Shown here: positions 1,255 through 16,919 of the stretch, one piece after another | Layout: the number at the start of each line of letters is the position of its first letter | How positions within the stretch are numbered: the stretch's first letter is position 1 | DNA from: Cylindrospermopsis raciborskii Cr2010 | Lineage (GTDB): Bacteria > Cyanobacteriota > Cyanobacteriia > Cyanobacteriales > Nostocaceae | NCBI RefSeq assembly: GCF_003367075.2 | Contig: NZ_CP065936.1 | Location: 3,180,001-3,212,000, forward strand | Reading direction: 5' to 3' | DNA length: 32,000 nucleotides | The notes under the pieces: model-generated | Told to the model about the DNA's origin: nothing | What the model saw: the letters and a program-made list of their open reading frames with translations, nothing else | The model's database searches: none | Program-made: the position numbers and the translations under genes

Positions 1255-1281
1255 ACTCCCCTACCTTTTTATCACTTTACT

Positions 1282-1582
1282 TTACTCCTGCTCAAAGGCC
1301 TGACTGTTAAATTTGAGGGTGCGGCAATTTTCTGTGACAGTGCGCACCACATCATCAGGTACACCATCGGGAATGTCTGCTTCAATTTCTAATACTATCC
1401 TAACTTTCGCATCTTTTAAGCTGGTTAGGTGCTGAATGATTTCATTGGCGATCGCAGGAGCATCGCGATTAATTCGTAAGGGGTCAATCTCTACTGTGCC
1501 ATGAAATCTCTTGAGCTGGGGTTTTGTTTCTCTGGTTCTCTCGGTTGGGGTGGGTTCTTGGGTGGGTTGGATCGGTTTTTTA
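1282..1582 (-). pseudogene. C-terminal fragment (~97 codons) of the HEPN-DUF499 ATPase, cut off by the IS1 insertion
   Basis: Deleting 1583-2333 and one copy of the 8-bp duplication rejoins the 1013-aa ORF in frame: ...SRSESTSKK|PIQPTQEPTPTERTRETKPQLKRFHGTVEIDPLRINRD...RTVTENCRTLKFNSQAFEQE*. The first ~31 codons of the 128-aa track ORF (1282..1668) are read from IS sequence. Confidence 0.85.
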
Positions 1583-1621
1583 GGCGTTGCATAATAGAGG
1601 TATGAATTGAGGTAATCTACT

Positions 1622-1912
1622 GTGCATTGTCCAAACTGCGGGTCTTCCAAAATCAGAAAGAATGGCAAACGTCGAGGTAAACAAAATCACATTTGTGTTG
1701 ATTGTGGTCGTCAATTTATCGATGTCTATAGTCCACCTAAAGGCTATTCAGAAGAAGTTAAACAAAGTTGCCTGCGCTCTTATGTTAACGGTATGGGATT
1801 TAGAGCAATTGAACGCGATAAAGGCGTTCATCATACAACTATTATTTACTGGCTAAAACAAATTGGTTCCATACTTCCAGATGCTCCACCAGGAAACACC
1901 CTTGGTAGGTGA
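1622..1912 (+). CDS. insA: IS1-family transposase N-terminal part (InsA-like: Zn finger + HTH)
   Basis: MHCPNCGSSKIRKNGKRRGKQNHICVDCGRQF... gives a CxxC...CxxC zinc finger followed by an HTH (GMGFRAIERDKGVHHTTIIYWLKQ), as in IS1 InsA. Confidence 0.8.
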   Translation: MHCPNCGSSKIRKNGKRRGKQNHICVDCGRQFIDVYSPPKGYSEEVKQSCLRSYVNGMGFRAIERDKGVHHTTIIYWLKQIGSILPDAPPGNTLGR

Positions 1913-2309
1913 GCTTGATGAGTTGGAGACCTTTGTGGGATCAAAAAAAAACAAAATATGGTTGTGGACAGCAGTAAATCACTTCCGTAAAAATATCCTG
2001 GCTTGGGTTGTGGGAGACCACAGCTCACAAGCATTTCAACCTTTGTGGGACATCGTTAAACTCTGGCAATGCTTTTTTTATGTTACTGATGGGTGGAGGG
2101 TTTATCCGAGTTTTATTCAGCCAGAGGATCATATTGTGAGCAAAACATATATGACTAGGGTAGAGGGTGAAAATACACGTTTACGTCACTACTTAGCGCG
2201 ACTACATAGAAAAACGCTATGCTATTCAAAATCTGTAGATATGCTTAGGTATTCAATTAAATTATTACTTCACTATTTAAAGTATGAAGTAATACCCGCG
2301 TTTAGTTGA
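1863..2309 (+). CDS. insB: IS1-family transposase catalytic part (InsB-like DDE domain), in a different frame from insA
   Basis: ...GELDELETFVGSKKNKIWLWTAVN...VTDGWRVYPSFI...SKTYMTRVEGENTRLRHYLARLHRKTLCYSKS matches IS1 InsB conservation. The frame is offset +1 relative to insA. Confidence 0.8.
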   Translation: MVPYFQMLHQETPLVGELDELETFVGSKKNKIWLWTAVNHFRKNILAWVVGDHSSQAFQPLWDIVKLWQCFFYVTDGWRVYPSFIQPEDHIVSKTYMTRVEGENTRLRHYLARLHRKTLCYSKSVDMLRYSIKLLLHYLKYEVIPAFS

Positions 2310-2310
2310 T

Positions 2311-5300
2311 TCATCCCGCAAATATGCAACGCCGTTTTTTACTGGTGCTTTCACTTCTACTGGGTGAGGTAAGTTCTTTGACTTGCTCCTCTTCTAGCTG
2401 TTTTGTCGCTATTTCGGGTTTTACAATCAGGTTTTCACTGCTGATGCTGGGGTTTATGTTATGCAATACTACTAGGTTTTTATATTTCTGTTTGCTCTCT
2501 TCCCACCCCTGTGCATAACCAAAGTGATTCTGTATGTCTATTTTTTGTACTCCGTTTTTTACTGCTTCTAATAGCACTTCTGGGTTCTTTAATCGGGGTA
2601 GATATACGTATTGGGCTAAGTATTCCCACAGCTGTTTGAGATCTATGTGGTTGGTGTCTCTCCATAGGTATTTGTCTAGTGCTTCCATTCTTAGGGTGTT
2701 GCTGGAATATTCTGTAATCAGTTGTCCATCGTTTACTAGTTGGCGACTAGCTCTTAGTATGGGAGAACTCTCTCCTGGTATTCGTTCGCAGTTAATCTCT
2801 ATCGGTTCGTGGGGATTTGGTTGCTCAGGTGAAATTAACCATTGATAGGTCTGGTTCAAAATTGTTTTTACATATTTTTCTGATTGTTCTTTCTGAGCTG
2901 TGGCTTGTTTGGTCTGTGAAACATTTAGGTTTAATGTGTCTTTGTCATTCAATATGGAATCCCATGCTAGATACTGGGCAACATTCTTGTTTAAATTTTC
3001 TATGTTGTCTTCCTCCGCAGCAACAAATACTAGGGTGTTTTTATAATAGCGGCGGCTGGTTCCTCTATGATTCAGAACGTCTTCTATCCATTCTATAGCA
3101 CTGCTATTTTTTTTAGCTTTATTGTGCTGGAGTTCGGGACTAAGAACTACAAGTCTCACTCCTAGGTTAGGATCGTCGGGTATGTCGCTGCTGGAGTCTG
3201 GAGCAGTATGAATGGCTGTAAATTCACCCCGCTCTTTGTCGCTTTTTAATCTTCTAATTATTTCTTCTGTGACTTTGTATAGTTCCTCTAAAAATTGGTT
3301 GGTTCTATCCTGTGCTGTACGGGTAACGTTGGGTTGATTAGAGATCCAGTAGCGGTTACCATCAATATACAAGTAGGTAGCTCTATCTGTTAATCTTCTA
3401 AGAGCATCTACAAAGGTGGCTACTACTTCCCCTGGTTGGACACAGCCAAGTTTTATCCGCTGTTCTTCTAATCCTATGTTGGCGGCCTGTTGAATGGGCG
3501 CTGAGCCTAGGTATATGGTGCGTGCAACTCTCCGACAAGCAGAGTAACGACCAATGGGGGTGTTTTGCCTGTCTATCTCCAGAGGAAGGGAGTTTATTCC
3601 ATCTACATCTTTTTCGATGATGGGAACCCAGTTGTCATCCAGGTATCTTGTTAGTTCTGACTGAACTTGAGCATCATCCATGGGAATTTGACCTGGCATG
3701 ATCAGTAAACCTTTATCTTCTCTTTCCCACAGAGAATGGATTACTTTGGCCATTAGACGCAATACTCCCCTAGTTCGCTGAAATTTATCCAGAGTTGACC
3801 ATTCTGAATAAAGGCGATCAAATATTTCTGGGTGTATGGGGTAAGACTCTTTTAGGCGGTTTTGATATTTGGCTTCTGCGCATTCACTAGGAAACTCTTG
3901 CTTTTGCTGGCGATACATATCATAGAATGCCCGAATCACCCTATCTCTTTCCACAAACAGGTCTGGGTTTGTAGTAGTCTCAAATAGGCGACGACGGACT
4001 ATTTCCAAGCTCTCTTCCGCACTGGATGGTCTCCAGGGAGATTCTACCCTACCCATAGCATTTTTTAATCTGTCCAGGGCTTGTTTGCCCCTATCTCCAC
4101 CTATTTCGTTATCAGAGGAGGAGGGGATGCTCACTACTAACAGGGTGCGGTCGGCATTTTTTGCTGATTCGCTCAGGGTCTGGGCAAAGGTAAAGTGGGT
4201 ATCAAAACTCCCTCCTGGGAGATCTGGTTGTTCATGAAGTTGGCGAGCGTAAGCAACCCACTCATCTATTAATATCATGCAGGGAGCATAGCGGTTAAAT
4301 AGGTGTTTGAGAGTATCACCAGGATTAGTAGCTGTTTGGTCGCTGTCTCTCACCATTTCATAACCCTCTTTCCCTCCCAGTTGCCAGGCTATTTCTCCCC
4401 ACAGGGTACGTATTTGGGTGCCATCTGATTTTTTATAAATGGTACCAGGTGAGATTTTGTTACCCACTATGACTACTGTGTTGACGTTTTGGGGTAGTTC
4501 CTTGATGGATGTTTCTTCAAATACTGGATCTAGTCCGGGTAGTTCGTGGGGTTGTAGTCCAAAAAACATGTGATAGAGGGCAAGTATAGCATGGGTTTTG
4601 CCTCCTCCAAAGTTGGTCTGTAGTTCGATTACTGGGTCTCCTCCTTTGCCTGTCAAGCGAATGAGGGCATTAGTAAGGAGTTTTTTGAGTCCTTCCGTCA
4701 AGTAGGTGCGTCGGAAAAATTCTGTAGGGAGGCGGTATTCATCAGAACCTTCATCTTGATATACTTGCCACAGGTCGGCGGCAAATTCTGCTTGTTGGTA
4801 GCGACCTGATGCTACGTCGGGGTGGGGTGTGGCAATTTCTCTCCATGGTTTTAACCATGATGATGGTTGTCCTTCTGTGGGTGCTTCTGCTTTGCGTCTT
4901 GTTTCTCTTTTGGCTTGTTCTTCATACCGGGTTCTGAGGATTTCTTGTTTTTGCTTTTCTACTTCTTCGGTATCCCCAGAAACTGCATTTAGCAGTCTGG
5001 TAATACTGTCAAAAGCGCGGTAGGTGTCGTCTAGGGAAAATGAACTGTTATGGGCCCAGCTGTTGCGGGTCTCTCTTAGTTCACTCACTAATGAGCGATC
5101 GCTTCTCCCCAGGGTTTTTTTAAAAACGTCGTTCCAATATTCCCACATAACAATAAGTAGGGCTGATACGTCTTCTTGAAAGATAGTATCTGCTGTTTTT
5201 CGGGTTGTGTAGCTTTCCGGGAGGCAATTTATGGCCATAGTAGTCCATTGTTTACCATAGGTTTGTTTCATTTCTCTGTCCACAAAGGGGTAGAGTCCTT

Positions 5301-5352
5301 CTTTAAGGGAATCAAGTGCCCTTCCTACACGTTCCCGATTACTTATTGCCAT
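2311..5352 (-). CDS. Swt1-type HEPN domain fused to a DUF499 (COG1483-type) P-loop ATPase, 3'-truncated by IS1; the native gene reconstructs to ~1103 aa
   Basis: The N-terminal HEPN has an Rx4H motif (SELRETRNSWAHNSSF). The DUF499 core reads WREIATPHPDVASGRYQQAEFAADLWQV...RTYLTEGL, with Walker A LQTNFGGGKTHAILALYH and Walker B CMILIDEW. The last 7 codons (RRCIFAG*) are read from the IS1 end. Confidence 0.9.
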   Translation of the reverse strand: MAISNRERVGRALDSLKEGLYPFVDREMKQTYGKQWTTMAINCLPESYTTRKTADTIFQEDVSALLIVMWEYWNDVFKKTLGRSDRSLVSELRETRNSWAHNSSFSLDDTYRAFDSITRLLNAVSGDTEEVEKQKQEILRTRYEEQAKRETRRKAEAPTEGQPSSWLKPWREIATPHPDVASGRYQQAEFAADLWQVYQDEGSDEYRLPTEFFRRTYLTEGLKKLLTNALIRLTGKGGDPVIELQTNFGGGKTHAILALYHMFFGLQPHELPGLDPVFEETSIKELPQNVNTVVIVGNKISPGTIYKKSDGTQIRTLWGEIAWQLGGKEGYEMVRDSDQTATNPGDTLKHLFNRYAPCMILIDEWVAYARQLHEQPDLPGGSFDTHFTFAQTLSESAKNADRTLLVVSIPSSSDNEIGGDRGKQALDRLKNAMGRVESPWRPSSAEESLEIVRRRLFETTTNPDLFVERDRVIRAFYDMYRQQKQEFPSECAEAKYQNRLKESYPIHPEIFDRLYSEWSTLDKFQRTRGVLRLMAKVIHSLWEREDKGLLIMPGQIPMDDAQVQSELTRYLDDNWVPIIEKDVDGINSLPLEIDRQNTPIGRYSACRRVARTIYLGSAPIQQAANIGLEEQRIKLGCVQPGEVVATFVDALRRLTDRATYLYIDGNRYWISNQPNVTRTAQDRTNQFLEELYKVTEEIIRRLKSDKERGEFTAIHTAPDSSSDIPDDPNLGVRLVVLSPELQHNKAKKNSSAIEWIEDVLNHRGTSRRYYKNTLVFVAAEEDNIENLNKNVAQYLAWDSILNDKDTLNLNVSQTKQATAQKEQSEKYVKTILNQTYQWLISPEQPNPHEPIEINCERIPGESSPILRASRQLVNDGQLITEYSSNTLRMEALDKYLWRDTNHIDLKQLWEYLAQYVYLPRLKNPEVLLEAVKNGVQKIDIQNHFGYAQGWEESKQKYKNLVVLHNINPSISSENLIVKPEIATKQLEEEQVKELTSPSRSESTSKKRRCIFAG

Positions 5353-5425: not shown

Positions 5426-8086
5426 TCATAAAGAAAGACTAATTTGGTGATCACTAGGGGTTCTATATTGGTTGGCTAATCGGGTAATCTCCGTCCAGGA
5501 TATGACTAGACTATTATAGGCTATAGCCTCTTGATTCCATCCCTTGCGATCGCACAGGTTATACAATCTATAGGCCAGGTCTCGGGCGAGGTAGGGACTG
5601 GTTTCTAGTTGGGCTAGGAGTTTGGCTGCACCGACTTCTCCTTGAAATAGGAGTGAGTGGATAAGATGTTGAGTGATTTCCCAGATTGGCATGCGGGTAT
5701 CTTTTTGTGGTTTCCAGTCTGTAGGGAGGTCTTCTCGTTTGAGGAGTCTGACCTTACCCGCTTTAGCTTCTAAAATGCCTGATTCTACTAGACCTTGAAC
5801 GCTGGTGTTTTTAGCTTTAGAAAGGGTTTCTGCATCACCATAGGGACCATCAGAGAATTGGTGTTGCTCAAACCAGGTGAGGGCCCAGCGGGTATCGCTA
5901 TCGAATTCGCCTTCTTGTTCGGTGAGGAATTCGTCCAGAATTTGGTTAATAGATTGGAGTGCGCTGCGTACGCGTAGGGACTTGCCATCAGGTTCTAATA
6001 CAGCAGCATATTTGGAGAAGATAGCCATACCGGGGCCTATGCTGGCTTGGGCTAGGTCAACGGGGGCGATGTTGCCTTGTTGTAGGAGTTTGAGGGCTGG
6101 GGGAAGGTCTGTTTTGAGTTCTTTGAGGAATTGGCGGCGGGTGGTTTTGGGTGCGTCTTGGGGTCGGGGGCGACATACGAGAACTATGGAGGAGGCAAGG
6201 GCGTTAGAATTTTGTCCTCTGATACGATTACCTAATTCTGTTCGTAGTGGCCATGTTCCATTAATACTAAAACTAGATTGGATTAATCCTTGTAAAATAG
6301 TTTCCCATCCTGTAGAATAGATGTTTTGTTCATTGTCTGTTTCGGTTTGTTTTAACGCATAATATATTGTTATAGGATAATCTTTGTCATTAATTTGATT
6401 GATACGTTGAAAAACTTGAATAAGACTATCTTCAAAAAATTGTTTTGCCTTATCTTTAGTTTCGTGTCGAAAGTGATCTGCCACCATTTCTTGAGCTTTC
6501 GGAACTAATACAGTATTAAAGATGTCTGGATAGATAGAACCTATAGATTGGCGCAGCCAAACATAAAAGAAATCAGATAGATCTGCATAGGGAATAGCGT
6601 CATAGTAAGGTGGATCTGTGGAGATGAATTTGGGTGTATTGTTGCTAGATTGTGATGTGGTGGCATCCAGCTGAATAGCTTTTCCCTGGGGAAAACAAGA
6701 AGACTTTTCAATAACCTTCCAAATCCAATCAATAGCACCATTAAAATTGCCGCTGGAATCACTCATAGGATTAGCTTCAGCAAAATCCCAAGTCATGGGA
6801 ATAGCTTGTCTTGTAAAGACATGACTCATTTTTTCCCCACTTATGTGCCAAGTGCAAATACTACTCCAATAATCTGAGCTTTTGTCAATAGCGATTGCCA
6901 AATAGGTAGCTACTGCATCTGCATAAGCGGTAGCTCCCATACCCCCATCATTGAGAGAGAGATGATCATCAGTTTTTCCTGCTGCTATGGCGTGGTCTTT
7001 TATCTTCTCTCTTGCTTCCTGTACTAGGTCGCTGAAGGTGGTCAGGGCTACAAGTTGGCGCGAGGTGAAGAGATCGCTATGTTTTGTCATGCCATAACGA
7101 GGTGTTGCCATGTATTGGGAATGGGTTGAAAGTTCTGTCTCTGGTTTCCAACTTGGTTCGACTAAAAGAGCTATTTGTTCATGTTCATCACTAGGAGAGA
7201 CATAAATTCTTCCACTTTTTCCTTCAGCTACAATGGCCATTAATTGAGCATTCATCCTTCCTGCTTTCCCTTCGCTACGGATATGATCCAATGTCACGGG
7301 TGTTTTACAGGCTATACAAACTGCTCCTTTTCTACTTACAGTCCCCTCTGGTGCTTCCCCCTTTCCTGTGTTTACCTCAAATCTTATTTTGGGAGTTAGG
7401 GCCCCTTGCTGCTGCTCAATCAAAGGTTCAACCCAAGCCTCTTTCCCTTTCTTGGTTGAAAGATGAAACTTATTAACCAATGGCATTTGACAACCACATG
7501 CTGGGTTAGGACATTTGACGGTTCTAGCCCACACCCAGGCAATAACTGTGGCTTCTCCGCCTCCCTGCTCTTTTGCTAGCTTGACCTTGGGATACAAATG
7601 CCCAATTCGTTTAAAGGCTTCATCCCGCATCCACTGTCCATAATATCTGATATCTTCTGCTAATCCCTGGGCACCATACCATTTTCCTGTGGGGGTGGCT
7701 GATGGATTAACTGGGCGTTGGTCTCTAAATTTGGGTGGAATCTCAATGAGTGCTTTGGTAATTAATACTGCTACTGGGTTGAGGTCACTACCATGGGACT
7801 GAAGTCCTAATCGCTGGGCTTCTAGGGGTATGGATCCTCCTCCGCAAAAAGGGTCGTATGCGGGGGGGGCATTTTTAGCGATGTAGTCTCTTATGGCATC
7901 AGGTTTAGTCGGGGGTTGGTCTCCACGTTCCCAAGCTAGGCAGCGGGTGATTTCTTTTTGAGCATCTATTAATACTGTTGATTTAGGATTATTAATGTCA
8001 TCCCAGGATACTAATCCTTTTACAGTCTCTTTTATATTTCCTTTTTTATCTTCTTTAATTTCAATTCTTCGTGACATACTCCACAC
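5426..8086 (-). CDS. DUF1156-family Zn-ribbon DNA methyltransferase (N6-A/N4-C type, COG1743-like) lacking the N-terminal DUF1156 domain
   Basis: SAM-binding motif YDPFCGGGSIPLEAQRLGLQSHGSDLNPVAVLI. Catalytic motif FISTDPPYYDAIPYADLSDFFYVWLR. Cys clusters CPNPACGC...CIACKTP. The conserved N-terminal WWARRP-type DUF1156 segment expected in this family is absent. The track's GTG start at 8086 lies inside the IS200/IS605 end hairpin, so it is fortuitous. Confidence 0.85.
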   Translation of the reverse strand: MWSMSRRIEIKEDKKGNIKETVKGLVSWDDINNPKSTVLIDAQKEITRCLAWERGDQPPTKPDAIRDYIAKNAPPAYDPFCGGGSIPLEAQRLGLQSHGSDLNPVAVLITKALIEIPPKFRDQRPVNPSATPTGKWYGAQGLAEDIRYYGQWMRDEAFKRIGHLYPKVKLAKEQGGGEATVIAWVWARTVKCPNPACGCQMPLVNKFHLSTKKGKEAWVEPLIEQQQGALTPKIRFEVNTGKGEAPEGTVSRKGAVCIACKTPVTLDHIRSEGKAGRMNAQLMAIVAEGKSGRIYVSPSDEHEQIALLVEPSWKPETELSTHSQYMATPRYGMTKHSDLFTSRQLVALTTFSDLVQEAREKIKDHAIAAGKTDDHLSLNDGGMGATAYADAVATYLAIAIDKSSDYWSSICTWHISGEKMSHVFTRQAIPMTWDFAEANPMSDSSGNFNGAIDWIWKVIEKSSCFPQGKAIQLDATTSQSSNNTPKFISTDPPYYDAIPYADLSDFFYVWLRQSIGSIYPDIFNTVLVPKAQEMVADHFRHETKDKAKQFFEDSLIQVFQRINQINDKDYPITIYYALKQTETDNEQNIYSTGWETILQGLIQSSFSINGTWPLRTELGNRIRGQNSNALASSIVLVCRPRPQDAPKTTRRQFLKELKTDLPPALKLLQQGNIAPVDLAQASIGPGMAIFSKYAAVLEPDGKSLRVRSALQSINQILDEFLTEQEGEFDSDTRWALTWFEQHQFSDGPYGDAETLSKAKNTSVQGLVESGILEAKAGKVRLLKREDLPTDWKPQKDTRMPIWEITQHLIHSLLFQGEVGAAKLLAQLETSPYLARDLAYRLYNLCDRKGWNQEAIAYNSLVISWTEITRLANQYRTPSDHQISLSL

Positions 8087-8125
8087 ACTCCCTTACAGGT
8101 GAGTGTGGGCTTCTCAACGACTCTT

Positions 8126-9349
8126 CTATGAAGACATTGATTGAGCTTTGAGGGCGTGTGTCCCACGCGCCTTTATATTTATAGCCGCATTTAGATCCCG
8201 GCACAAGCTGACCTTGCAATTAGGGCAATTGTGCCTTCTTTCTGATAGCGGCTTTTTGACTTTGTGTCCACAGTTAGAACATTCTTGGTTCGTACCGTTT
8301 GGATTTACAGCTATCACTTTCAAGCCAGCATTCTCGGCTTTGTTTGAAAGTATGGTGATGAACTGTCCCCAACCAGCATCGTTAATACTTTTAGCCAATC
8401 TTGTTTTAGCAAGTCCTTTTATATTTAATTTTTCAACAGCTACTACGTCATACTTTTTGAGTAGATTATTAGCTGTTTTGAATTGGAAATCTTTTCTAGT
8501 ATCAACAACTTTCTTGTGTAGAATACCCAGTTTTTTAATCGCTTTTTTACGGCGATTAGAACCTCTCTTCCGACGAGAGACACGACGTTGCGCAGATTTT
8601 AACTTGCGTTCAGCTTGGCGTAGAAACTTAGGTGCGGCAATTCTTTCACCGTCTGAGGTGACAATAAAATCAATCAATCCGACATCAATACCAACAATAT
8701 TATTAGCATTAAAATCAGGCTTAATTGTGGGAACTGTTTTGTCGTCAAGACTTAGAGTTACATAATACCCGTCTGCTTTTTTAGTGACAGATACAGTTTT
8801 AATTTGAAACCCGTCGGGAACTTGACGATGAACAATTACTTTAACATCGCCTATTTTTGATAGCGTAATCTTGTTATTGACAAAGTGATGTTGTTTGAAT
8901 TGAGGAAAAGTAAATGTTTTATATTGTCCCGTACTTTTAAATCTAGGTCTACCAGACTTTTTGCTGTTGCTATCACCTTTTAACCATCGGTCAAAAGCTA
9001 ACTCAACTTTCTTTGCGACTTCCTGTAGCACCTGAGAATGAATCTCTTTGTACCAAGGACGGTCTTTTTTAAGTTGAGTTAATGATGCTTTTTGGTTGTA
9101 ATAATTAGGTTGCTCTTTGAGTTCTGGTAAATGACAAACGAATATGGAACATCTATTAATAGGGGAACGATTTTGTTCATACCAATCAAACCGTTGAGCC
9201 AGCAAATAATTGTATTGATAGCGCAGCATTTCTAGCGTTTTATCAATCTTTTCTGCTTGCTGTTTTGTCGGTTTAATTTTGTATTGATAGGATATCCGCA
9301 CCTGATTATCGCCTTTTTCTGATGTTGGTGTTACTATTCTAGTATACAC
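8126..9349 (-). CDS. tnpB: TnpB (IS200/IS605 OrfB, RuvC-like RNA-guided nuclease family)
   Basis: Typical N-terminus (R)ISYQYKIKPTKQQAEKIDKTLEMLRYQYNYLL. RuvC-type acidic residues are in context: GIDVGLIDFIV, VVAVEKLNIKGL, CRDLNAAINI. Zn ribbon CSNCGHKV...CPNCKV. The true start may be the internal GTG at 9301. Confidence 0.9.
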   Translation of the reverse strand: MYTRIVTPTSEKGDNQVRISYQYKIKPTKQQAEKIDKTLEMLRYQYNYLLAQRFDWYEQNRSPINRCSIFVCHLPELKEQPNYYNQKASLTQLKKDRPWYKEIHSQVLQEVAKKVELAFDRWLKGDSNSKKSGRPRFKSTGQYKTFTFPQFKQHHFVNNKITLSKIGDVKVIVHRQVPDGFQIKTVSVTKKADGYYVTLSLDDKTVPTIKPDFNANNIVGIDVGLIDFIVTSDGERIAAPKFLRQAERKLKSAQRRVSRRKRGSNRRKKAIKKLGILHKKVVDTRKDFQFKTANNLLKKYDVVAVEKLNIKGLAKTRLAKSINDAGWGQFITILSNKAENAGLKVIAVNPNGTNQECSNCGHKVKKPLSERRHNCPNCKVSLCRDLNAAINIKARGTHALKAQSMSS

Positions 9350-9377
9350 TAATTATGAGAAATATGGCAAGAAGCTT

Positions 9378-9512
9378 ATGAAAAATGATTTTGTTTCAAA
9401 GGGAAGGTCAGTCAGTGACTTAAAAGTACATCTAGTTTTAACGACAAAATATAGGCGCAAAGCCTTTACTGGAGATATGTTACAGCGATTACATATCATC
9501 CTAGCAGAATAA
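9378..9512 (+). pseudogene. tnpA: Remnant (44 codons) of the IS200/IS605 Y1 transposase TnpA
   Basis: My translation is MKNDFVSKGRSVSDLKVHLVLTTKYRRKAFTGDMLQRLHIILAE*. It matches the TnpA N-terminus (HxVxxxKYRRK) but stops before the HUH and catalytic Tyr regions. It is divergent from tnpB with a 28-bp spacer. Confidence 0.7.
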
Positions 9513-9575
9513 GACAGTGTTCGTTTTCTCCATGTTCCCTATTAGTCAGGGAACTGTCGTCAACTCACGCGCCAT

Positions 9576-11618
9576 TCATCCCACGCTCACTCTTAGGAGC
9601 GTGGGGCTTCTGTCGGCAAAGCTAATGGCTTCAATGAGCAGTTCTCGCAACTCTTTGCCGGCGATCGCTTTGCCCAAGACGTCAAAAACCTGTCCTCCTA
9701 GGGCTTTTTGTTCGGCTTCTAGTTTTTCTAGGAGGGTGCGATAAACGTCTCCTTCTCGGGTTTCATGGGCGACCAGGTTCCAGAGATGACATACTTCTGT
9801 TTGTCCAATACGATGAATGCGACCAAATCTTTGTTCTAGGCGGTTGGGATTCCAGGGGAGGTCGTAGTTAACCATCAGATGGGCTCTTTGTAGGTTTATA
9901 CCTTCACCTGCTGCGTCTGTGGCAAGGAGGACTTGTACTTCTTTATCTTGTTTGAAGTTTTCTTCTGCTTTTTTGCGGTCTTCTCTTCCCATAGCTCCAT
10001 GTATGGTGACTACGGTTTCTGAGTTACCTAGGAGGTTGGCAATTTTATCTTTGAGGTAGTTAAGGGTGTCTCTATGTTCAGTGAAGACGACTATTTTACG
10101 TCGATATCCTCCTTGATCAAACATTTCTGCTTTATCTTGGAGTAGATGGGAGAATTCTTCCCATTTGCGGTCTTTCCCGCTTAGACGCACGCTGTTGGCT
10201 AGGTCTTCTAGGTTTTTTAGTTGGCTGATTTCAAATTCTAGTTCAGCAATTGTACGTGCTGCTGTGGCTTGATCTACTACTTCTTCTATGGTGGATTCCC
10301 GCTCTGTGCTATCGCTATTTTCTAAGTCATCATCTATGTCTTCTTGGTCAATAATACTACCATTTTCTACTTCTAGGTTTTTTCCTCGTTTGAGTAGTTG
10401 TTCTTCTCTGACTCGTTTTGCTAGTCTTTCTCGTCGTCGTTTCAAGGACTGATAGATGGCTTCTGGGGATGAGGCTAAACGGCGTTGTAGGATGGTGAGG
10501 GCAAAGCCGACTGTTCCTTTTCTGCCATTATTAGAGAGCATTTCTGCTCGGTTAAATTCTTCTCGGACGTAATCTGTTACTTTGCTGTAAAGAAGAGCTT
10601 CTTGGTCGGAGAGTGGATAACTAACTGTATGGGCAATTCTTTCTGGAAACAGTGGTTTGCCATCAAACTTGAGTAATTCTTCCTTAACCATACGACGCAT
10701 CAGGTCGGATGTGTCTGATACATGAACACCATCCCGGAATCGCCCCTCAAAGCGATCTCCATCCAGGAGGGCAAGGAATAATTGAAAATCTTCTTCTTTG
10801 CCATTATGGGGTGTGGCGGTCATAAGGAGAAAATGGCGGGTGAGGGTGGAGAGGAGTTTGCCCAATTTGTAGCGTTTGGTTTCTCGAATTTCTCCACCAA
10901 AAAACGAGGCGGACATTTTGTGAGCTTCATCGCAAATGACCAGATCCCAATCTGTGTGCTGGAGTTTTTTTTGTAAGTCATCATTGCGACTGAGTTTATC
11001 TAGTCTGGCAATAACCAAGTTCATTTCATCAAGAGCATTACCAGTTATAGCTGCTTCTATACGTTCATTAGTGAGGATTTGGAAATGGAGGTGAAATTTG
11101 TGATGTAGTTCATCTTGCCATTGGACCGCTAAACTTCCTGGACAGACAATTAAACAACGGGCTAGATCCCCACGAATTAGTAGTTCTCTGATTAATAGCC
11201 CTGCCATAATAGTTTTTCCGGCGCCTGGGTCATCAGCAAGAAGGAAGCGGAGAGGTTGGCGATTGAGCATTTCACTGTAAACAGCAGTGATTTGATGGGG
11301 TAAAGGTTCTACTAGTGATGTGTGAACGGCTAGAAGTGGGTCAAATAGATAAGCTAGGTTAATGCGATGAGCTTCAGAAACTAGGCACAATGTTTCCCCG
11401 TCACCATCGAAGCTCCAGGGTTTTCCCTCGTTTACAATTTGTAGGCTTTCTTCTCTATCTCGGAAAAGTAGTTCTGTGTAAGGACTACCGTGGATATCTT
11501 TGTAGGTTAATTCAACTGTGTCTGTTCCGAACCACTTGGCATCAATGACTGTAACACCTTGACCAGGTAGAATGCCATTTATTATTGACCCTTGTTTTAG
11601 CTCTTCTAGTTTTATCAA
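9576..11618 (-). CDS. SNF2/COG0553-type helicase, copy A: native codons 1-665, C-terminus replaced by 15 IS-derived codons
   Basis: Walker A LLADDPGAGKTIMAG, DEAH box LVICDEAHKM, motif VI NPNRLEQRFGRIHRIGQ. Native sequence ends at 9622 (..LRELLIEAI). The tail SFADRSPTLLRVSVG* is read from the IS200/IS605 left end. Confidence 0.9.
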   Translation of the reverse strand: MIKLEELKQGSIINGILPGQGVTVIDAKWFGTDTVELTYKDIHGSPYTELLFRDREESLQIVNEGKPWSFDGDGETLCLVSEAHRINLAYLFDPLLAVHTSLVEPLPHQITAVYSEMLNRQPLRFLLADDPGAGKTIMAGLLIRELLIRGDLARCLIVCPGSLAVQWQDELHHKFHLHFQILTNERIEAAITGNALDEMNLVIARLDKLSRNDDLQKKLQHTDWDLVICDEAHKMSASFFGGEIRETKRYKLGKLLSTLTRHFLLMTATPHNGKEEDFQLFLALLDGDRFEGRFRDGVHVSDTSDLMRRMVKEELLKFDGKPLFPERIAHTVSYPLSDQEALLYSKVTDYVREEFNRAEMLSNNGRKGTVGFALTILQRRLASSPEAIYQSLKRRRERLAKRVREEQLLKRGKNLEVENGSIIDQEDIDDDLENSDSTERESTIEEVVDQATAARTIAELEFEISQLKNLEDLANSVRLSGKDRKWEEFSHLLQDKAEMFDQGGYRRKIVVFTEHRDTLNYLKDKIANLLGNSETVVTIHGAMGREDRKKAEENFKQDKEVQVLLATDAAGEGINLQRAHLMVNYDLPWNPNRLEQRFGRIHRIGQTEVCHLWNLVAHETREGDVYRTLLEKLEAEQKALGGQVFDVLGKAIAGKELRELLIEAISFADRSPTLLRVSVG
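9622..9889. repeat. 268-bp block identical to 14995-15262 (helicase codons ~577-665)
   Basis: Base-by-base comparison by eye found no differences. Confidence 0.9.
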
Positions 11619-11696
11619 ATTTAGTCTCTCTCTTGCGATCGCATTTCTATATTTTTATCCTCCAGTCCCTATTCTAACACAGTATTTTTTGGGCGA
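11121..11696. repeat. 576-bp block duplicated at 15262-15837 (helicase codons 1-166 plus 78 bp upstream)
   Basis: There are six differences, at 11127, 11148, 11211, 11220, 11400 and 11409. All are third-codon positions and both copies encode identical protein. Confidence 0.9.
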
Positions 11697-11886
11697 ACAG
11701 GCGATTGGGAAGCACTCCCTATGGGAGATCACTTTCTTATGTGGATCCATCTATATTTAGCCTGCTATATGTTGTATAGTTCTGGATTTGTACTGTTACA
11801 CTGAGTAAGTTTTTTATCAAGTTGCTGTATTAAATAGAAAAATAATCTCATACTAAAGTTATTTTATCTACAGGTGACTGTTTTAA

Positions 11887-11929
11887 TATCTACCCTAAGA
11901 TGGATTAAATATCTATCTTAGGGTAGATA
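11887..11929. repeat. Perfect 15-bp inverted repeat with a 13-nt spacer in an AT-rich intergenic region
   Basis: TATCTACCCTAAGAT (11887-11901) and ATCTTAGGGTAGATA (11915-11929) are exact reverse complements. Confidence 0.8.
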
Positions 11930-12091
11930 CAAGGAGCAAGTAGTGTTTATTGAGAATAGATTTTGATGACATTTTTGCTGATTTACTGTTTCTCGAATGC
12001 TTTTTTCACTCTCTATGTTTATTTTTATGCTAACTTTGATTTTTTATCTCAGTAATTTCCCTCCCTGATAGTTGAGGGTGCGGAATGTGGG

Positions 12092-12126
12092 TATAATGGC
12101 AGCAAAATATTTACCAAAATGGTAAA
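12092..12126 (+). promoter_or_regulatory. Candidate -10 box plus palindromic operator upstream of the higB-like gene
   Basis: TATAAT at 12092-12097 lies 49 nt upstream of the ATG at 12146; there is no convincing -35. The palindrome TTTACCA-AAA-TGGTAAA at 12110-12126 sits between the -10 box and the start codon, where an HTH antitoxin operator would be expected. Confidence 0.4.
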
Positions 12127-12145
12127 CTAAAATATAGTTCCATCG

Positions 12146-12475
12146 ATGGATATTACCTTCGCTGACAGCAAACTTCAGAAGCTATGCGAGCAGCAATCGG
12201 TCGCCCAACAGAAACTGGGTCGAACCTGCGCTCGTAAACTTCGCTCTCGCCTCGCTGACCTTCGTGCTGCGGGGTCGGTAAGGGAGCTGGTGTCAGGGCG
12301 GCCGCATCCCTTAAGAGGCGATCGCGCTGGGGAGTTTGCTGTAGATCTAGAAGGTGGGAGACGACTCGTCTTCAAGCCAGCTAGTACTCCTATCCCTATA
12401 AATGAGGATCGAAGTATTGATTGGTCGAAGGTCACTCGCGTCTGTATCGTTTTTATAGGGGACTACCATGACTGA
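12146..12475 (+). CDS. higB: HigB-like (plasmid-maintenance-killer / RelE-superfamily) toxin
   Basis: 109 aa. The pattern ...RLADLRAAGSVRELVSGRPHPLRGDRAGEFAVDLEGGRRLVFKP...VCIVFIGDYH matches the HigB/killer family (..L...P...HPLKGDR.G.wsv.v....R..F......v....DYH). It overlaps the downstream gene by 8 nt (ATGACTGA). Confidence 0.7.
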   Translation: MDITFADSKLQKLCEQQSVAQQKLGRTCARKLRSRLADLRAAGSVRELVSGRPHPLRGDRAGEFAVDLEGGRRLVFKPASTPIPINEDRSIDWSKVTRVCIVFIGDYHD

Positions 12476-13613
12476 AATTACACGCCCCTTCACCCCTGAT
12501 TGGGTCTCTCCTCCTGGTGATACTATTCTGGATCTGCTAGAGGAACGCGATTGGACGCAGGGCCAACTGTCAGAGCGTCTGGGGTATACAACAAAGCACA
12601 TAAGCCAACTGATTAACGGCAAAGCACCGATTAATGAGGAGACTGCGCTTAAGTTAGAACGGGTACTAGGAAGTACCGCTGGATTCTGGCTTAACCGGGA
12701 GGCTCAGTACCGCGCTCAACTTGCCAAGATTGAGGAACAAGAGCGTTTGCAAACCTGGACTCCCTGGTTAGATGAATTACCCGTAAAGGAGCTGATGCAG
12801 CAAGGAGTAATCCCAAAGCGTCGAATTGATGCTAAGAGTAAACCTGGCATTGTCAGGGAACTACTACACTTCTTTGGTGTGGCATCACCAGATGACTGGC
12901 AAACCTTTTACGTTGGGATGGAGTGTGCCTTTCGTCGGACGCGAGAGGCTCAAAGTGATGTGGGAGCGATCGCCGCCTGGATTCGGCAAGGGGAAATTCT
13001 TGCGGAGCGGCTCAACTGCCCGAAGTACAGTAAGCCAAAATTCGAGAAGGCGGTGCGAGAGATTCGCACGCTCACCATGTTAGAACCCGAAGAGTTTGAT
13101 CCAGAGATGCGGAAGCTCTGCTGGGAAGCCGGAGTGGTATTTGTGATTGTCCCGTCAATTCCAAGGGCGCACGTAAGCGGGATGGCCCGGTGGTTAAATC
13201 CGCACAAGGCACTGATTCAGCTATCGCTCTATGGCAAGCAGAACGACCGCTTCTGGTTTACCTTCTTCCACGAAGCAGCTCACATTCTTCTTCACGACAA
13301 AAAGGATATCTTCCTAGATGAGTGGGATGGAGGAGCAGTAGTGCAGTCAAAGCAAGAGGAAGAAGCAAACTGCTGGTCACGGGAGTTTTTAATTCCGCTA
13401 CATCACGAGTTAGAACTACCTAATTTGAAGTCGAAGGAGGCTGTAATTGACTTTGCCAAGCGGATTGGAATTCATCCCGGTATTGTGATAGGAAGGCTTC
13501 AGCACGATAAAGTGATTGCTCCTACTTGGATGAACGGTTTGAAGGTAAGTTTTCGGTTCAAAGGGAATTGTGCCTCCCTACTTAACTCATCCCAAAAGAG
13601 CTTGTCCTGGTGA
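12468..13613 (+). CDS. HigA-type XRE HTH antitoxin fused to an ImmA/IrrE (COG2856) Zn-metallopeptidase domain
   Basis: N-terminal HTH: DWTQGQLSERLGYTTKHISQLINGKAPINEETALKLERVLG..FWLN. C-terminal HExxH: FWFTFFHEAAHILLHD. The start is translationally coupled to the toxin stop. Confidence 0.75.
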   Translation: MTEITRPFTPDWVSPPGDTILDLLEERDWTQGQLSERLGYTTKHISQLINGKAPINEETALKLERVLGSTAGFWLNREAQYRAQLAKIEEQERLQTWTPWLDELPVKELMQQGVIPKRRIDAKSKPGIVRELLHFFGVASPDDWQTFYVGMECAFRRTREAQSDVGAIAAWIRQGEILAERLNCPKYSKPKFEKAVREIRTLTMLEPEEFDPEMRKLCWEAGVVFVIVPSIPRAHVSGMARWLNPHKALIQLSLYGKQNDRFWFTFFHEAAHILLHDKKDIFLDEWDGGAVVQSKQEEEANCWSREFLIPLHHELELPNLKSKEAVIDFAKRIGIHPGIVIGRLQHDKVIAPTWMNGLKVSFRFKGNCASLLNSSQKSLSW

Positions 13614-13671
13614 TGTTTATTTCCTCTTTCTTTCATTTGGTTTCATCCCAGCTAAAAGCTTACTCCCCTAC

Positions 13672-13900
13672 GATCGCCCGTAGGGAGTGTAATGCGATCT
13701 CGCGTAGCGAGTGCTTCGCAATCGCCCATAGGGGGTGTAATGCAATCTCCCCTCAACACATTCAGATTTTTCCCTACTTAATTCTAGGGAGTGCTTCGCA
13801 ATCGCCCTTCAACACCTTCAAAATTTTCCCTTGAGAAGGAACTAGGGGGATAATCTCTAAGAGCGATCGCCCAGAGGGAGTGCTGCGCAATCGCCGACCA
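13672..13900. repeat. Cluster of short dispersed cyanobacterial repeats built around HIP1
   Basis: Three copies of (G)GAGTGCT(T/G)CGCAATCGCC, two of GATCGCCC(G/A)TAGGG(A/G)GTGTAATGC(G/A)ATCTC and two of CTTCAACAC-like ...TTCA(A/G)A(T)TTTTCCCT. Related motifs occur at 11701-11726 (inverted) and 17965-17980. Confidence 0.7.
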
Positions 13901-13917
13901 AACAAAAGATGGTATAT

Positions 13918-14268
13918 TTAACGTGTCCTTGACTTATTATTGTTAATTGTCCATCCAATATGTATATTAGCTCCTCTTAAACCATGATAGCTAACACCCA
14001 CTGTAAAACCTGAACCAGTATAATTAATACCAGCTTGACCGGTAAAATCGGTACTGGTAAAACTATCTTTTTTATAAAGCCATCCAGTAGCGTTAGACCG
14101 TATGATATTGGCTCTTTCAGCAAAGTAGAAACCAGGTCCCCCATATAAAAATAAATCCTGACTTATCGGTAAAAAGCCCAACAGGTCTATTCCTAGTTTT
14201 GAAGTCTCTCTTTCTCCAATACTTGTGTAATAGTTGTGGGGAATATCAAATTTCTCTATTGTAGGCAT
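13918..14268 (-). CDS. Hypothetical protein with an alternating beta-strand-like pattern; possibly a fragment of an outer-membrane beta-barrel
   Basis: 116-aa ORF (..GFTVGVSYHGLRGANIHIGWTI..). The frame is open for another 34 codons upstream (..WYGLEIGVASFGN) into the end of helicase copy B. No family recognised. Confidence 0.3.
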   Translation of the reverse strand: MPTIEKFDIPHNYYTSIGERETSKLGIDLLGFLPISQDLFLYGGPGFYFAERANIIRSNATGWLYKKDSFTSTDFTGQAGINYTGSGFTVGVSYHGLRGANIHIGWTINNNKSRTR

Positions 14269-14294
14269 ATTGCCAAATGAGGCGACTCCTATTT

Positions 14295-15759
14295 CTAAAC
14301 CATACCAGTCTCTTCTAAAACCAACTGCTCCAGTAATTGTTTTTCTTGTTGCAGGTCTTTCAGGCGTTGGTTAAGACGGCTTTCTAGTTCGTCCGCTCTG
14401 GCTTGGGCTTTGTTAGAATTTAATCTGGCATTAGGTTTGCCTGCTTCTTCTTGTAAACGCAGTTGGCTGGCTCGATAATCCCAATAGTTGATTTCTTTGG
14501 TTAATCGGTCTTTTACTGCTTTCATGGTCTTTTCTATTAATTCTTCTTTTCTCTGTTTTATCTCTTGCAGGTGTGCTACAACTAGATTGGTAATGGCATA
14601 TTCTATGGCTTTCTTTTCTATATTATTTTCTATTTGTAGTGAATCTAGTATGGGATCTACTAGGGATTTTTCATTCTCTTTTAAGGGTCTATAGTTCAAA
14701 TAGGGTGCATAGCCTGCATTTTTTACTTGGTTTTCTTTGCTGTCTTCATTTTGCTTGTTCACTCTCAGGGGAATTTCTACATACTGCATGCGCTTTGAGA
14801 CTACTCTTCTTTTTCCATCCCTATTTAATCGGGCATCTTGAATGGCATGTTCTAAATATACTAGGGCGCGAATCTCTTCTGTATAATCATTTTCATCAAT
14901 TAGTATGGCTCCTCTTTTGAGTAGTTGCTGTTGATCTAGTTTCTCTTTTACAACTTCGTTTAGTCTGGCTTTTACCTCTGGGCGATCGCCATATCTAATG
15001 GCTTCAATGAGCAGTTCTCGCAACTCTTTGCCGGCGATCGCTTTGCCCAAGACGTCAAAAACCTGTCCTCCTAGGGCTTTTTGTTCGGCTTCTAGTTTTT
15101 CTAGGAGGGTGCGATAAACGTCTCCTTCTCGGGTTTCATGGGCGACCAGGTTCCAGAGATGACATACTTCTGTTTGTCCAATACGATGAATGCGACCAAA
15201 TCTTTGTTCTAGGCGGTTGGGATTCCAGGGGAGGTCGTAGTTAACCATCAGATGGGCTCTTTTGGACTGCTAAACTTCCTGGACAGACGATTAAACAACG
15301 GGCTAGATCCCCACGAATTAGTAGTTCTCTGATTAATAGCCCTGCCATAATGGTTTTTCCTGCGCCTGGGTCATCAGCAAGAAGGAAGCGGAGAGGTTGG
15401 CGATTGAGCATTTCACTGTAAACAGCAGTGATTTGATGGGGTAAAGGTTCTACTAGTGATGTGTGAACGGCTAGAAGTGGGTCAAATAGATAAGCTAGGT
15501 TAATGCGATGAGCTTCAGAAACTAGGCACAATGTTTCCCCATCACCATCAAAGCTCCAGGGTTTTCCCTCGTTTACAATTTGTAGGCTTTCTTCTCTATC
15601 TCGGAAAAGTAGTTCTGTGTAAGGACTACCGTGGATATCTTTGTAGGTTAATTCAACTGTGTCTGTTCCGAACCACTTGGCATCAATGACTGTAACACCT
15701 TGACCAGGTAGAATGCCATTTATTATTGACCCTTGTTTTAGCTCTTCTAGTTTTATCAA
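14295..15759 (-). pseudogene. SNF2-type helicase, copy B: codons 1-166 joined out of frame to codons 577-898 by a 1231-bp internal deletion; it carries the C-terminus missing from copy A
   Basis: Track ORFs 15241..15759 (172 aa) and 14295..15248 (317 aa) match copy A for residues 1-166 and 582-665. The junction at 15262 corresponds to copy-A positions 9889|11121, a deletion of 9890-11120 (1231 bp, not a multiple of 3). Past LIEAI it continues RYGDRPEVKARLNEV... for 233 more codons. Confidence 0.9.
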
Positions 15760-15837
15760 ATTTAGTCTCTCTCTTGCGATCGCATTTCTATATTTTTATC
15801 CTCCAGTCCCTATTCTAACACAGTATTTTTTGGGCGA
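14995..15837. repeat. Copy-B counterpart of the two duplicated helicase blocks
   Basis: 14995-15262 equals 9622-9889 (offset 5373). 15262-15837 equals 11121-11696 (offset 4141). The two blocks share the single T at 15262. Confidence 0.9.
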
Positions 15838-16033
15838 TTTGTGGTCCAGCGAGTGGGACTTGTGGCTTTCTGGTGGCTGCTAATGAATATTTACGGGAAC
15901 ATCACCCGGAAGTAAGGAAGTTGTGCATGAGCAGGTTGATCATCTTGCACCTCAAGAAATTCTGGCTAATTTAGCGAAGTTAGAGGTGGAAATTCAGCAG
16001 GGGATGGAGAAATTAGAGGGGATGCTGAAATAA
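15838..16033 (+). pseudogene. hsdM: Relic of a type I R-M methyltransferase (HsdM-like): motif-I segment joined to the extreme C-terminus
   Basis: Frame A (from 15840) reads CGPASGTCGFLVAANEYLREHHPEV, which resembles the HsdM AdoMet motif DPxxGTxGFLxxAxEYL. Frame B reads ...KEVVHEQVDHLAPQEILANLAKLEVEIQQGMEKLEGMLK* (stop 16031-16033), a typical HsdM C-terminal helix. The two are in different frames about 10 codons apart, so most of the gene is deleted. Confidence 0.45.
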
Positions 16034-16086
16034 TTGTGTTTGTTAAGATTAATTTGACTGTATTTTAAGTTTTATTAGGATGAAAT

Positions 16087-16383
16087 GTGATGAAAACCTT
16101 TGATGAACTCCGACAACTTTTATCACTACAAAAGCAATCTCTCTGTGAAATTTATCAAATTACAGAAATTGGGATCTTTGGTTCTTATGCTAGGGGTGAG
16201 GAGACGGAAGCAAGTGATGTTGATATTTTGGTTGATTATGAAACAGCGCCTACTTTTATTATGTTAGTGGAACTTAGGGATTATTTAAGTCAGTTGTTTG
16301 GCTTGAAGGTGGATGTTGTTACTAAGAACGGGCTTAAACCCCGGATTCGTGAGCGTGTTTTGGCTGAGGCTATTTATATATGA
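16087..16383 (+). CDS. mntA: MNT-type nucleotidyltransferase (type VII TA antitoxin, MntA-like)
   Basis: GIFGSYARGEETEASDVDILVDY is the GSxxRG...DxD minimal nucleotidyltransferase signature. The 4-nt overlap (ATGA) with the downstream DUF86 gene is the classic pairing. Confidence 0.85.
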   Translation: MMKTFDELRQLLSLQKQSLCEIYQITEIGIFGSYARGEETEASDVDILVDYETAPTFIMLVELRDYLSQLFGLKVDVVTKNGLKPRIRERVLAEAIYI

Positions 16384-16721
16384 AGCGTAGTTATACGGAA
16401 TTTTTACAGGATATTTTAGACGCTATTACAGAAATTGGTTTGTTTGTAAATGGTGTTAGTTATGAGGCTTTTGAGTCCAACAGAGAGAAAACTTTGGCGG
16501 TGGTGAAGTTATTAGAAGTTATTGGGGAAGCTGTTAAAAAAATTCCTAATGAACGCCGTGAACAGTATCCAGATATACCTTGGAAATCTATAGCAGGTAT
16601 GAAGGATATGCTTGTACATGAATATTGGCAGGTTGATGTGGCGGTTGTCTGGGCTACGGTTCAGCTTTCTTTACCATTATTAAAAGCAGTTGTAGTGATG
16701 GAATTGGAGGAAAAACCATAG
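16380..16721 (+). CDS. hepT: HepT-like DUF86 HEPN protein (type VII TA toxin family)
   Basis: DUF86 layout: FLQDILDAI..I......YEAFESNREKTLAVVKLLEVIGEAVKKIP......YPDIPWKSIAGMKDMLVHEYWQVD. The usual R-N-x3-H-x-Y motif reads K-D-M-L-V-H-E-Y here. Confidence 0.8.
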   Translation: MKRSYTEFLQDILDAITEIGLFVNGVSYEAFESNREKTLAVVKLLEVIGEAVKKIPNERREQYPDIPWKSIAGMKDMLVHEYWQVDVAVVWATVQLSLPLLKAVVVMELEEKP

Positions 16722-16799
16722 TGAAAAACAGAGAAATTTTGCCAAATTAGCCAAGTGGGTCTAGACAACGGTAAGAGTAAGGGATTAGAATAAGGGATA

Positions 16800-16919
16800 G
16801 ACCGCTTCTATCTAAGAAGCAGAATTAATGGAAACTCAATAAAGTATCAGCCCGTGAAATGTCTGGTATTACAAAAAAGACCGCTTCCTTCAGTGGAAGC
16901 GGAACTAATAAAAGTAAAC
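16800..16919 (+). CRISPR. Degenerate two-repeat CRISPR-like relic (repeat, 43-nt spacer, repeat)
   Basis: R1 (16800-16835) is GACCGCTTCTATCTAAGAAGCAGAATTAATGGAAAC. R2 (16879-16919) is GACCGCTTCCTTCAGTGGAAGCGGAACTAATAAAAGTAAAC. They share the GACCGCTTC...GAAGC.GAA.TAAT...AAAC frame, an internal hairpin (CCGCTTCC/GGAAGCGG in R2) and a ...GGAAAC 3' end typical of cyanobacterial type III repeats. Only two copies are present, and they have diverged. Confidence 0.4.

Follow-up and report, generated by a model that had tools for sequence, protein, structure and literature searches.

The Hma locus of C. raciborskii Cr2010 is damaged in all three genes

A 32,000-nt stretch of contig NZ_CP065936.1 from Cylindrospermopsis raciborskii Cr2010 (positions 3,180,001 to 3,212,000; here called the window) carries the remains of an operon for Hma, a candidate helicase-methylase-ATPase defence system (Payne et al., 2021, PMC8565338) that has been examined further for embedded genes (Payne et al., 2024, preprint, 10.1101/2024.01.29.577857). 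The locus is a relic and not a working member of the system. All three genes are damaged, and the helicase gene, hmaA, is present as two partial copies, A and B:

1285..5352, minus strand: hmaC (HEPN_Swt1 + DUF499 ATPase), split at residue ~1004 by an insertion of insertion sequence (IS) type IS1 at 1583-2333
5426..8070, minus strand: hmaB (DUF1156 methyltransferase), first 153 codons gone, residues 154-1037 kept
9622..11696, minus strand: copy A, the resident hmaA, consisting of an upstream region U (11619-11696) and codons 1-665, ending in CCATTAG and joined there to the left end of an IS
14334..14928, minus strand: copy B, gene nt 2454-3048 (codons 819-1016), lying after a second, in-frame 390-nt deletion (nt 2064-2453)
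14929..15261, minus strand: copy B, gene nt 1731-2063 (codons 577-688); 14995-15262 is a 268-bp block common with copy A
15262..15759, minus strand: copy B, codons 1-166 (gene nt 1-498), with the first deletion junction at 15262, where nt 499-1729 are gone, and CAA microhomology
15760..15837, minus strand: copy B upstream region U, 78 bp, with the repeat edge 15837/15838 at the flank of a nucleotidyltransferase (NTase) gene; this boundary is the same in five other assemblies

The analysis below makes it probable that this decayed locus holds two independent wrecks of hmaA, with copy A being the resident gene truncated by an IS-mediated deletion, copy B an older relic and the six base differences between them allelic.

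The original prediction had joined the two copies into one 898-aa protein, with copy B supplying codons 577-898 and the only surviving C-terminus. A search with this reconstruction returned homologues of ~1200 aa that covered just 77-79% of the query, the best match (97% identity) being P0001 of C. raciborskii DSH, an intact orthologue of 1198 aa. P0001 matches the PADLOC model of HmaA, an SNF2/DEAD-box helicase, with 1668 bits over residues 1-1195, and its downstream neighbours match HmaB (DUF1156 methylase; 1226 bits) and HmaC (HEPN_Swt1 + DUF499 ATPase; 1089 bits). When P0001 was compared with the window by tblastn, only residues 1-678, 1-166, 577-713 and 817-1016 were matched, and the last 182 residues (1017-1198, DUF3883/NOV_C) had no match anywhere in the window. 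The supposed codons 577-898 are in fact codons 577-688, the in-frame deletion, codons 819-1016 and a foreign end, and 898 aa is the size of no real protein. The assignment of codons 1-665 to copy A was correct; the open reading frame (ORF) at 9576-11618 then reads 15 codons into the IS end. Thus, no full-length HmaA is encoded in the window (copy A, 1-665; copy B, 1-166, 577-688 and 819-1016), and no HmaB and HmaC free of pseudogene damage lie beside hmaA on the same strand.

Related loci were collected by look-up of the HTH-M78 protein encoded next to hmaA, which gave five assemblies: DSH (L001, GCA_036409495.1), JGI 3300006450, GCA_051062915, CP195152 and CP073250. The four other than DSH are referred to as L002, L004, L005 and L006. 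All five carry an intact hmaA (1198/1206 aa) followed by hmaB and hmaC, a same-strand operon with full-length PADLOC matches that is orthologous to the locus studied here. In the window, by contrast, none of the three genes is whole: there are two truncated hmaA copies, 153 codons of hmaB are missing and an IS1 interrupts hmaC.

The six differences between the copies are silent and recur in other hmaA alleles

Repeat finding and base-by-base comparison reproduced both repeat blocks at the coordinates originally predicted. The 268-bp direct repeat (9622-9889 and 14995-15262, offset 5373) has zero differences, while the 576-bp direct repeat (11121-11696 and 15262-15837, offset 4141) has exactly six, at 11127, 11148, 11211, 11220, 11400 and 11409. 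These are the third positions of codons 164, 157, 136, 133, 73 and 70 in a minus-strand ORF whose TTG start codon is at 11618. Over the 166 codons, both copies translate to the same protein sequence; the earlier alignment, made by eye, had missed no amino-acid change.

A variable-site table was compiled for all 1426 nt of copy B against copy A of the window, the five intact alleles and L112, a 46-kb metagenome contig (JGI Ga0169931_10001022) whose copy A is truncated by the IS. Copy B has no private base in the 1426 nt, and each of its six distinguishing bases occurs elsewhere:

Site 210: copy B has T, as do L004 and L112
Site 219: copy B has T, as do L002, L004 and L112
Site 399: copy B has A, as does L002
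Site 408: copy B has C, as do L002 and L004
Site 471: copy B has C, as does L005
Site 492: copy B has A, as does DSH

Apart from L112, the alleles sharing these states are all intact, and each of the six states is found in at least one intact allele. The A alleles combine A-type with B-type states in mosaic fashion: DSH has only 492A, L005 only 471C and L002 the run 219T-399A-408C. A shorter form of copy B found in related strains (see below) has the A-type C,C at sites 210 and 219.

The probability that six of six changes are synonymous under neutrality, obtained by enumerating all single-base changes under varied assumptions about transition bias, is 8e-5 to 6e-4 for the 498 coding plus 78 upstream bases, depending on the bias, and 2e-4 to 1.3e-3 for the 498 coding bases alone. 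This formal test (8e-5 to 1.3e-3 overall) bears out the original prediction insofar as a silent-only pattern is unexpected under neutral decay (P ~1e-4 to 1e-3). Its dismissal of a duplication in place does not follow, because one copy is functional in most strains and would gather only silent changes. Among four intact alleles, mutual divergence is 0.2-0.6%, with 24 synonymous-only codons versus 5 with amino-acid changes; the variable sites divide 4:2:23 among first, second and third codon positions. As ~83% of the allelic variation is silent, six silent sites out of six has a probability of about one in three.

From this comparison, the six differences between copies A and B appear to be the difference between two hmaA haplotypes, and all six would be silent because both haplotypes evolved as working genes. 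This fits the suggestion, already made from the two copies alone, that they stem from alleles that diverged under purifying selection: every B base is found in other hmaA alleles and the variation is mostly synonymous. Copy B would thus preserve the other working allele and be too young to show decay of its own, which is the pattern expected. The original prediction had also explained the identical 268-bp block by later gene conversion. This is not called for, because the segment is invariant among alleles, being the same in both window copies and in the intact DSH, L004 and L006 alleles.

An IS200/IS605-family element marks a deletion from hmaA into hmaB

The truncation of copy A coincides with an insertion sequence with the following features:

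8071..9621, minus strand: IS200/IS605-family element, 1551 bp, between hmaA (9622) and hmaB (8070)
8126-9349, minus strand: tnpB, 407 aa (OrfB_IS605, 2.5e-24; Cas12f1-like_TNB, 1.4e-21; HTH_OrfB_IS605, 3.8e-13)
9378-9512, plus strand: tnpA stub of the Y1 type, 44 codons (Y1_Tnp, E = 1.6e-6, 28.6 bits against a cutoff of 23)
9580-9606 and 8083-8109: subterminal hairpins, left -12.1 kcal/mol (z = -4.0) and right -8.5 kcal/mol (z = -1.95, weaker)

Elements of the IS200/IS605 family (IS608 and ISDra2 types) carry a Y1 tnpA and a tnpB, have subterminal hairpins in place of inverted repeats and insert on the 3´ side of a short, fixed target that is not duplicated. The window element has the family traits, namely TnpB and a Y1 TnpA, subterminal hairpins without terminal inverted repeats, a fixed TTAG/TTTAG target and no duplication. 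It resembles the IS608 and ISDra2 types in TnpB, Y1 tnpA, hairpins and a short fixed target, but differs in that the target is TTTAG or TTAG, the tnpA is a 44-codon stub and the element marks a 2.1-kb deletion and not a simple insertion. With a tnpA of just 44 codons, the element is non-autonomous. The ends could be defined from other copies. The left-end sequence occurs in 15 metagenome stretches and is flanked in 14 of them by CTAA(A), corresponding to TTTAG or TTAG on the top strand of the IS; in the exception (L110) the flank is shifted by one base. A second full copy (L119) is 99.2% identical with both termini the same. Blastn of the IS alone against the related loci collected to that point gave no match, and exact-protein look-ups of TnpB (with either start residue) and of the 680-aa copy A product returned no record.

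Relative to DSH, the IS replaces 2142 bp (L001 11998-14139) comprising the 3´ part of hmaA, the spacer and the 5´ part of hmaB. The intact hmaA of DSH reads CCATTAG|ATATGG and its intact hmaB reads CATTTTAG|GAAGAATTG, with the breakpoints exactly at the two junctions of the window, where the IS is flanked by CCATTAG on the hmaA side and by the base following CATTTTAG on the hmaB side. Both IS junctions are also present in L112, with an IS that is 99.9% identical. The authentic IS termini at TTAG/TTTAG targets on both ends argue for an IS-mediated deletion with two genuine insertion joints at different sites, and the 3´ part missing from copy A was, on this reading, deleted and not moved to copy B. 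We envisage that the IS, inserting just after TTAG or TTTAG, would have come to lie with one end at the hmaA site, after codon 665, and the other at the hmaB site. Recombination between two inserted copies, or intramolecular transposition, may then have removed the 2142 bp and left one IS. The deletion would have left hmaB truncated at its 5´ end and, with the separate IS1 splitting hmaC, the system would be dead in this strain.

L112 (1611-5158) shares the deletion, and its central hmaA is 99.4-99.9% identical to the window. It differs from the window by 10-13% in hmaB and upstream of hmaA, and has neither copy B nor the HTH-M78 cassette. The dead, IS-deleted hmaA allele has thus evidently moved between backgrounds by recombination.

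Copy B is a relic that recurs in related strains and, in its long form, has a foreign end

Alignment to intact genes showed that copy B contains gene nt 1-498, 1730-2063 and 2454-3048 overall. The codons 1-166 and the 1231-nt frame-breaking deletion were as previously described, but the overlap at the first junction is 3 nt (CAA), not 1. The 3´ end comes from another gene:

13943..14343, minus strand: the 3´ 400 bp of a gene for a 182-aa outer-membrane beta-barrel protein, 96% identical to L097 10136-10536

The joint between this fragment and hmaA nt 3048 shows imperfect microhomology over ~11 nt, and the fragment gives copy B its last 12 codons and stop (14295). Its own reading frame persists from an internal start as a 116-aa ORF (13918-14268; the last 25 nt lie beyond the blastn span) identical to UJL33289.1 of C. 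raciborskii Cr2010. Blastn of 13787-14340 against the related loci collected to that point gave no match. The origin was found by protein search, with the full-length gene (P0122) on the C. curvispora plasmid L097 (CP060823).

In L002, L004, L005 and L006, the relic is called as ORFs of 172 and 104 aa. It is 99.6% identical to copy B of the window and lies beside the intact Hma operon, between the HTH-M78 gene and the NTase plus type III-B Cmr genes. The DSH relic has no called ORFs and is 91.5% identical to copy B. The upstream boundary and the first deletion junction were read directly in DSH and, for the other four, deduced from blast coordinates; the first junction is identical in at least four of the five assemblies. 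The copy B of these strains is short, ending at the equivalent of window position 15025, a HIP1 site, where it is joined to 150 bp from the interior of an IS630-type transposase gene via 17-bp and 8-bp overlaps. The long form, with both deletions and the beta-barrel fusion, was assembled independently in five metagenome contigs; the complete R. curvata NIES-932 chromosome has it too, there with one more deletion in the 5´ part. Most parsimoniously, the long form would be the older state, because it keeps the contiguous helicase sequence, while the short form bears an IS scar.

The comparison with related strains, proposed earlier as a way to find the ancestral copy, gives copy A as the resident hmaA of the operon and copy B as what appears to be an older relic common to the whole lineage. 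We suggest a single origin of copy B, in which a stretch of hmaA reaching from 78 bp upstream to nt 3048 would have been joined by microhomology to the beta-barrel gene fragment. Copy B would then have lost gene nt 499-1729 and 2064-2453 and become fixed between the MNT/HepT pair and the HTH-M78 gene, and in strains with an intact operon it would have been cut back further at the HIP1 site, leaving the IS630 scar.

The DSH relic (L001 3781-4581) has 28 mismatches and 17 indels in 585 bp, which are clustered, and its flanks are ~99.9% identical to the window. Its decay may reflect an unpolished repeat of a long-read assembly instead of real decay. The idea, drawn from this relic, that copy B is ancient and was re-homogenised in the window was dropped, given the clean, 99.6% identical relics of the other four strains, to which DSH is the outlier. 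A scan for sigma-70-type consensus sequences found no promoter in the 78-bp upstream region of either copy; a TGTGTTAGAAT motif noticed by eye stays a guess.

Sister strains include an apparent recombinant across the 576-bp repeat and carry deletions at HIP1 sites

The repeats were predicted to be substrates for further deletion, and such a product exists. L125 (GCA_045377345.1) is 99.92% identical to the window over 10.5 kb, and its positions 9923-11618 contain, contiguously, the NTase flank, the upstream region, codons 1-166 and then sequence of the copy A type. L125 appears to be a natural recombination product across the 576-bp repeat. The whole cassette between the copies is gone, as is most of the operon, with a further deletion fusing hmaA nt 1341 to the 3´ end of hmaC.

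In NIES-932, a deletion with a HIP1 site at either end has fused hmaA codon ~653 to hmaC codon ~89 (L122 14657-14672), and both sides of the joint share GCGATCGCTT. One hmaA HIP1 site, GCGATCGC (9661 and 15034 in the window), serves two independent joints, this one and the junction of short copy B with the IS630 piece (L004 11470-11486). HIP1-associated excision in cyanobacteria has been reported (Robinson et al., 1997, cited in PMC5861425). The joints of the sister strains match it, whereas the window's own junctions are IS-mediated or at other microhomologies.

Cassette, flanks and neighbouring modules

The remaining features bearing on the position of the two copies are:

12146..13613, plus strand: inter-copy cassette, encoding a 109-aa protein ('killer suppression protein HigA' in sources) and a 381-aa HTH_3/Peptidase_M78 protein
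13707..13895, plus strand: dispersed ~80-bp repeat units with the motif GGGAGTGCTTCGCAATCGCC; an extra copy at 11700-11719 (minus strand) lies directly upstream of the U of copy A
16087..16721, plus strand: MNT/HepT toxin-antitoxin pair, flanking copy B and anchoring its position across strains

The cassette is the native upstream neighbour of hmaA in all related strains. Its two proteins form a pair with relatives at 40-80% identity across many bacterial phyla; the 109-aa protein presumably is HigB/RelE-like, and the 381-aa protein matches PADLOC PD-Lambda-2_B (2e-30). Unlike the embedded gene cassette of Hma loci (2024 preprint), it lies upstream of hmaA on the opposite strand and is not embedded. 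The ~80-bp repeats sit at several rearrangement boundaries in the window and are abundant on the C. curvispora plasmid (L097); we take them to resemble the small dispersed repeats of Nostocaceae.

The MNT/HepT pair (nucleotidyltransferase and HEPN RNase) is intact in the window. In the five strains whose Hma operon is intact, 262 bp of hepT (window 16416-16677) are missing and the NTase gene alone survives. These five strains have ~6.6 kb of a type III-B module (cmr2/cas10, cmr3, cmr4, cmr5 and part of cmr6; L002 13250-19874) that is gone from the window, with the junction at 17068-17072; NIES-932 and L125 have the same loss. The IS1-type element in the 3´ end of hmaC (1583-2333), with a DDE_Tnp_IS1 ORF of 148 aa and a small zinc-ribbon ORF, is not present in DSH, NIES-932 or L125. 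Within hmaB, the 5´ half of what is left of the gene (6206-8070) is only 87-94% identical between any two strains, with 6206-6494 unalignable, against >99% in the flanks. This looks like a hypervariable, perhaps specificity-determining segment exchanged by recombination.

Origin of the second copy and alternative explanations

The repeat starts exactly 78 bp upstream of the start codon, with the NTase flank beyond it at copy B and the ~80-bp dispersed repeat at copy A. As the origin of the duplication, we favour capture of a second allele by one homologous crossover in the Hma operon and one illegitimate joint, a layout from which we infer homology-facilitated illegitimate recombination or Campbell-type integration. 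Such a capture would account for the exact match between the start of the repeat and the upstream edge of the Hma cassette. The concept comes from transformable bacteria, and the layout of the locus fits it: a truncated first copy, fused through microhomology to foreign DNA, is followed by a second, complete one, and the differences between them are of the allelic kind. Unequal crossover between the 268-bp blocks was rejected as the source of the layout; its predicted products do not match the observed gene order.

Several points weigh against the reading of two independent wrecks, one of them a captured allele. No genome clearly predating copy B and no donor were found; a scan of the genome collection anchored on the HTH-M78 protein gave distant relatives only (<=80% identity, other genera), with no Raphidiopsis and no outgroup arrangement. 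The arrangements of L112, which has no copy B, and of L125, with the helicase beside the NTase gene, may each be either ancestral or derived. Among genomes, long copy B has been seen only with a broken copy A (the window and NIES-932); a link between the two is conceivable. The mosaic B-type bases in A alleles fit intragenomic gene conversion as well as they fit inter-strain recombination. Finally, phage defence by Hma itself is putative, and the literature calls the system a candidate.

A segmental duplication of the hmaA 5´ region in place, with a functional copy A that gathers only silent changes, two-way conversion between the copies and no foreign allele, is a serious alternative that we nevertheless consider rather unlikely. 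It draws on copy A being intact and under purifying selection in five strains, and on the mosaic A alleles and the A-type C,C at sites 210 and 219 of short copy B, which resemble short conversion tracts; inter-strain recombination, however, accounts for the same mosaics. A simple tandem event would also not put kilobases of unrelated DNA (the beta-barrel fragment, the repeats and the HTH-M78 cassette) between the copies, and the repeat start coincides exactly with the upstream edge of the Hma cassette. It is improbable, though in keeping with capture, that copy B is a fossil captured allele that has since both given short gene-conversion tracts to the functional hmaA of the same genome and received them from it.

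That copy B has been kept for a function, expressing the 172-aa N-terminal HmaA fragment or serving as a silent donor cassette for hmaA, seems very unlikely. The 78-bp upstream region and the open 172-aa frame are present in every strain whose ORFs were examined (DSH falls outside these), and B-type bases occur in several A alleles. The variants are all silent, however, and donation would leave the protein unchanged; three lineages have eroded copy B in different ways, and L125 and L112 have lost it; the young age of copy B accounts for the zero private mutations, and the upstream region has no consensus promoter.

We give hardly any credence to a single rearrangement, the picture implied by the original prediction, that made the two copies as complementary products and transferred the missing 3´ part of copy A to copy B. 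The copy B pieces nt 1998-2063 and 2454-3048 do fall inside the segment deleted from copy A, and the long form accompanies a broken copy A wherever seen. Yet the copy A deletion is bounded on both sides by authentic IS termini at TTAG/TTTAG, the IS deletion recurs in L112, which has no copy B, and NIES-932 pairs long copy B with another truncation of copy A, at a HIP1 site. Copy B moreover lacks nt 2064-2453 and everything past nt 3048, ending in an unrelated gene, and the intact protein has 1198, not 898, aa.

An assembly artefact, which the original prediction had named as a possible refutation, can be set aside as negligible, as can chromosome variants that coexist in a polyploid cell: 268- and 576-bp repeats 4-5 kb apart could mislead short-read assemblers, and metagenome contigs end at the repeat edges, but four large, independent assemblies show copy B next to an intact hmaA, five independent contigs and the complete NIES-932 chromosome contain the long form, and the junction of copy A with the IS recurs in the independent 46-kb contig.

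Implications

The decay described here is genome decay of the ordinary kind, by IS elements, microhomology deletions and recombination; it is unusually well resolved and involves no new mechanism. Likewise, a young relic of a gene that has several alleles in the population can differ from that gene at silent sites alone without any special mechanism. One practical consequence is that RefSeq lists pieces of one pseudogene as ordinary proteins, here WP_236107170.1 (172 aa) and WP_236107168.1 (317 aa, 'C-terminal helicase domain-containing protein').

If copy B is a captured allele that exchanged conversion tracts with hmaA, relics of defence genes would feed the mosaic allele structure across strains of this bloom-forming cyanobacterium. 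Within ~17 kb (window 1-17,100), Hma has been lost three times over, by the IS605-type deletion, the IS1 insertion and the earlier relic, and most of the neighbouring type III-B Cmr module is gone as well. Cr2010 propagates the cyanophage CrV-01T, and a role of eroded defences in a permissive host is an idea worth testing.

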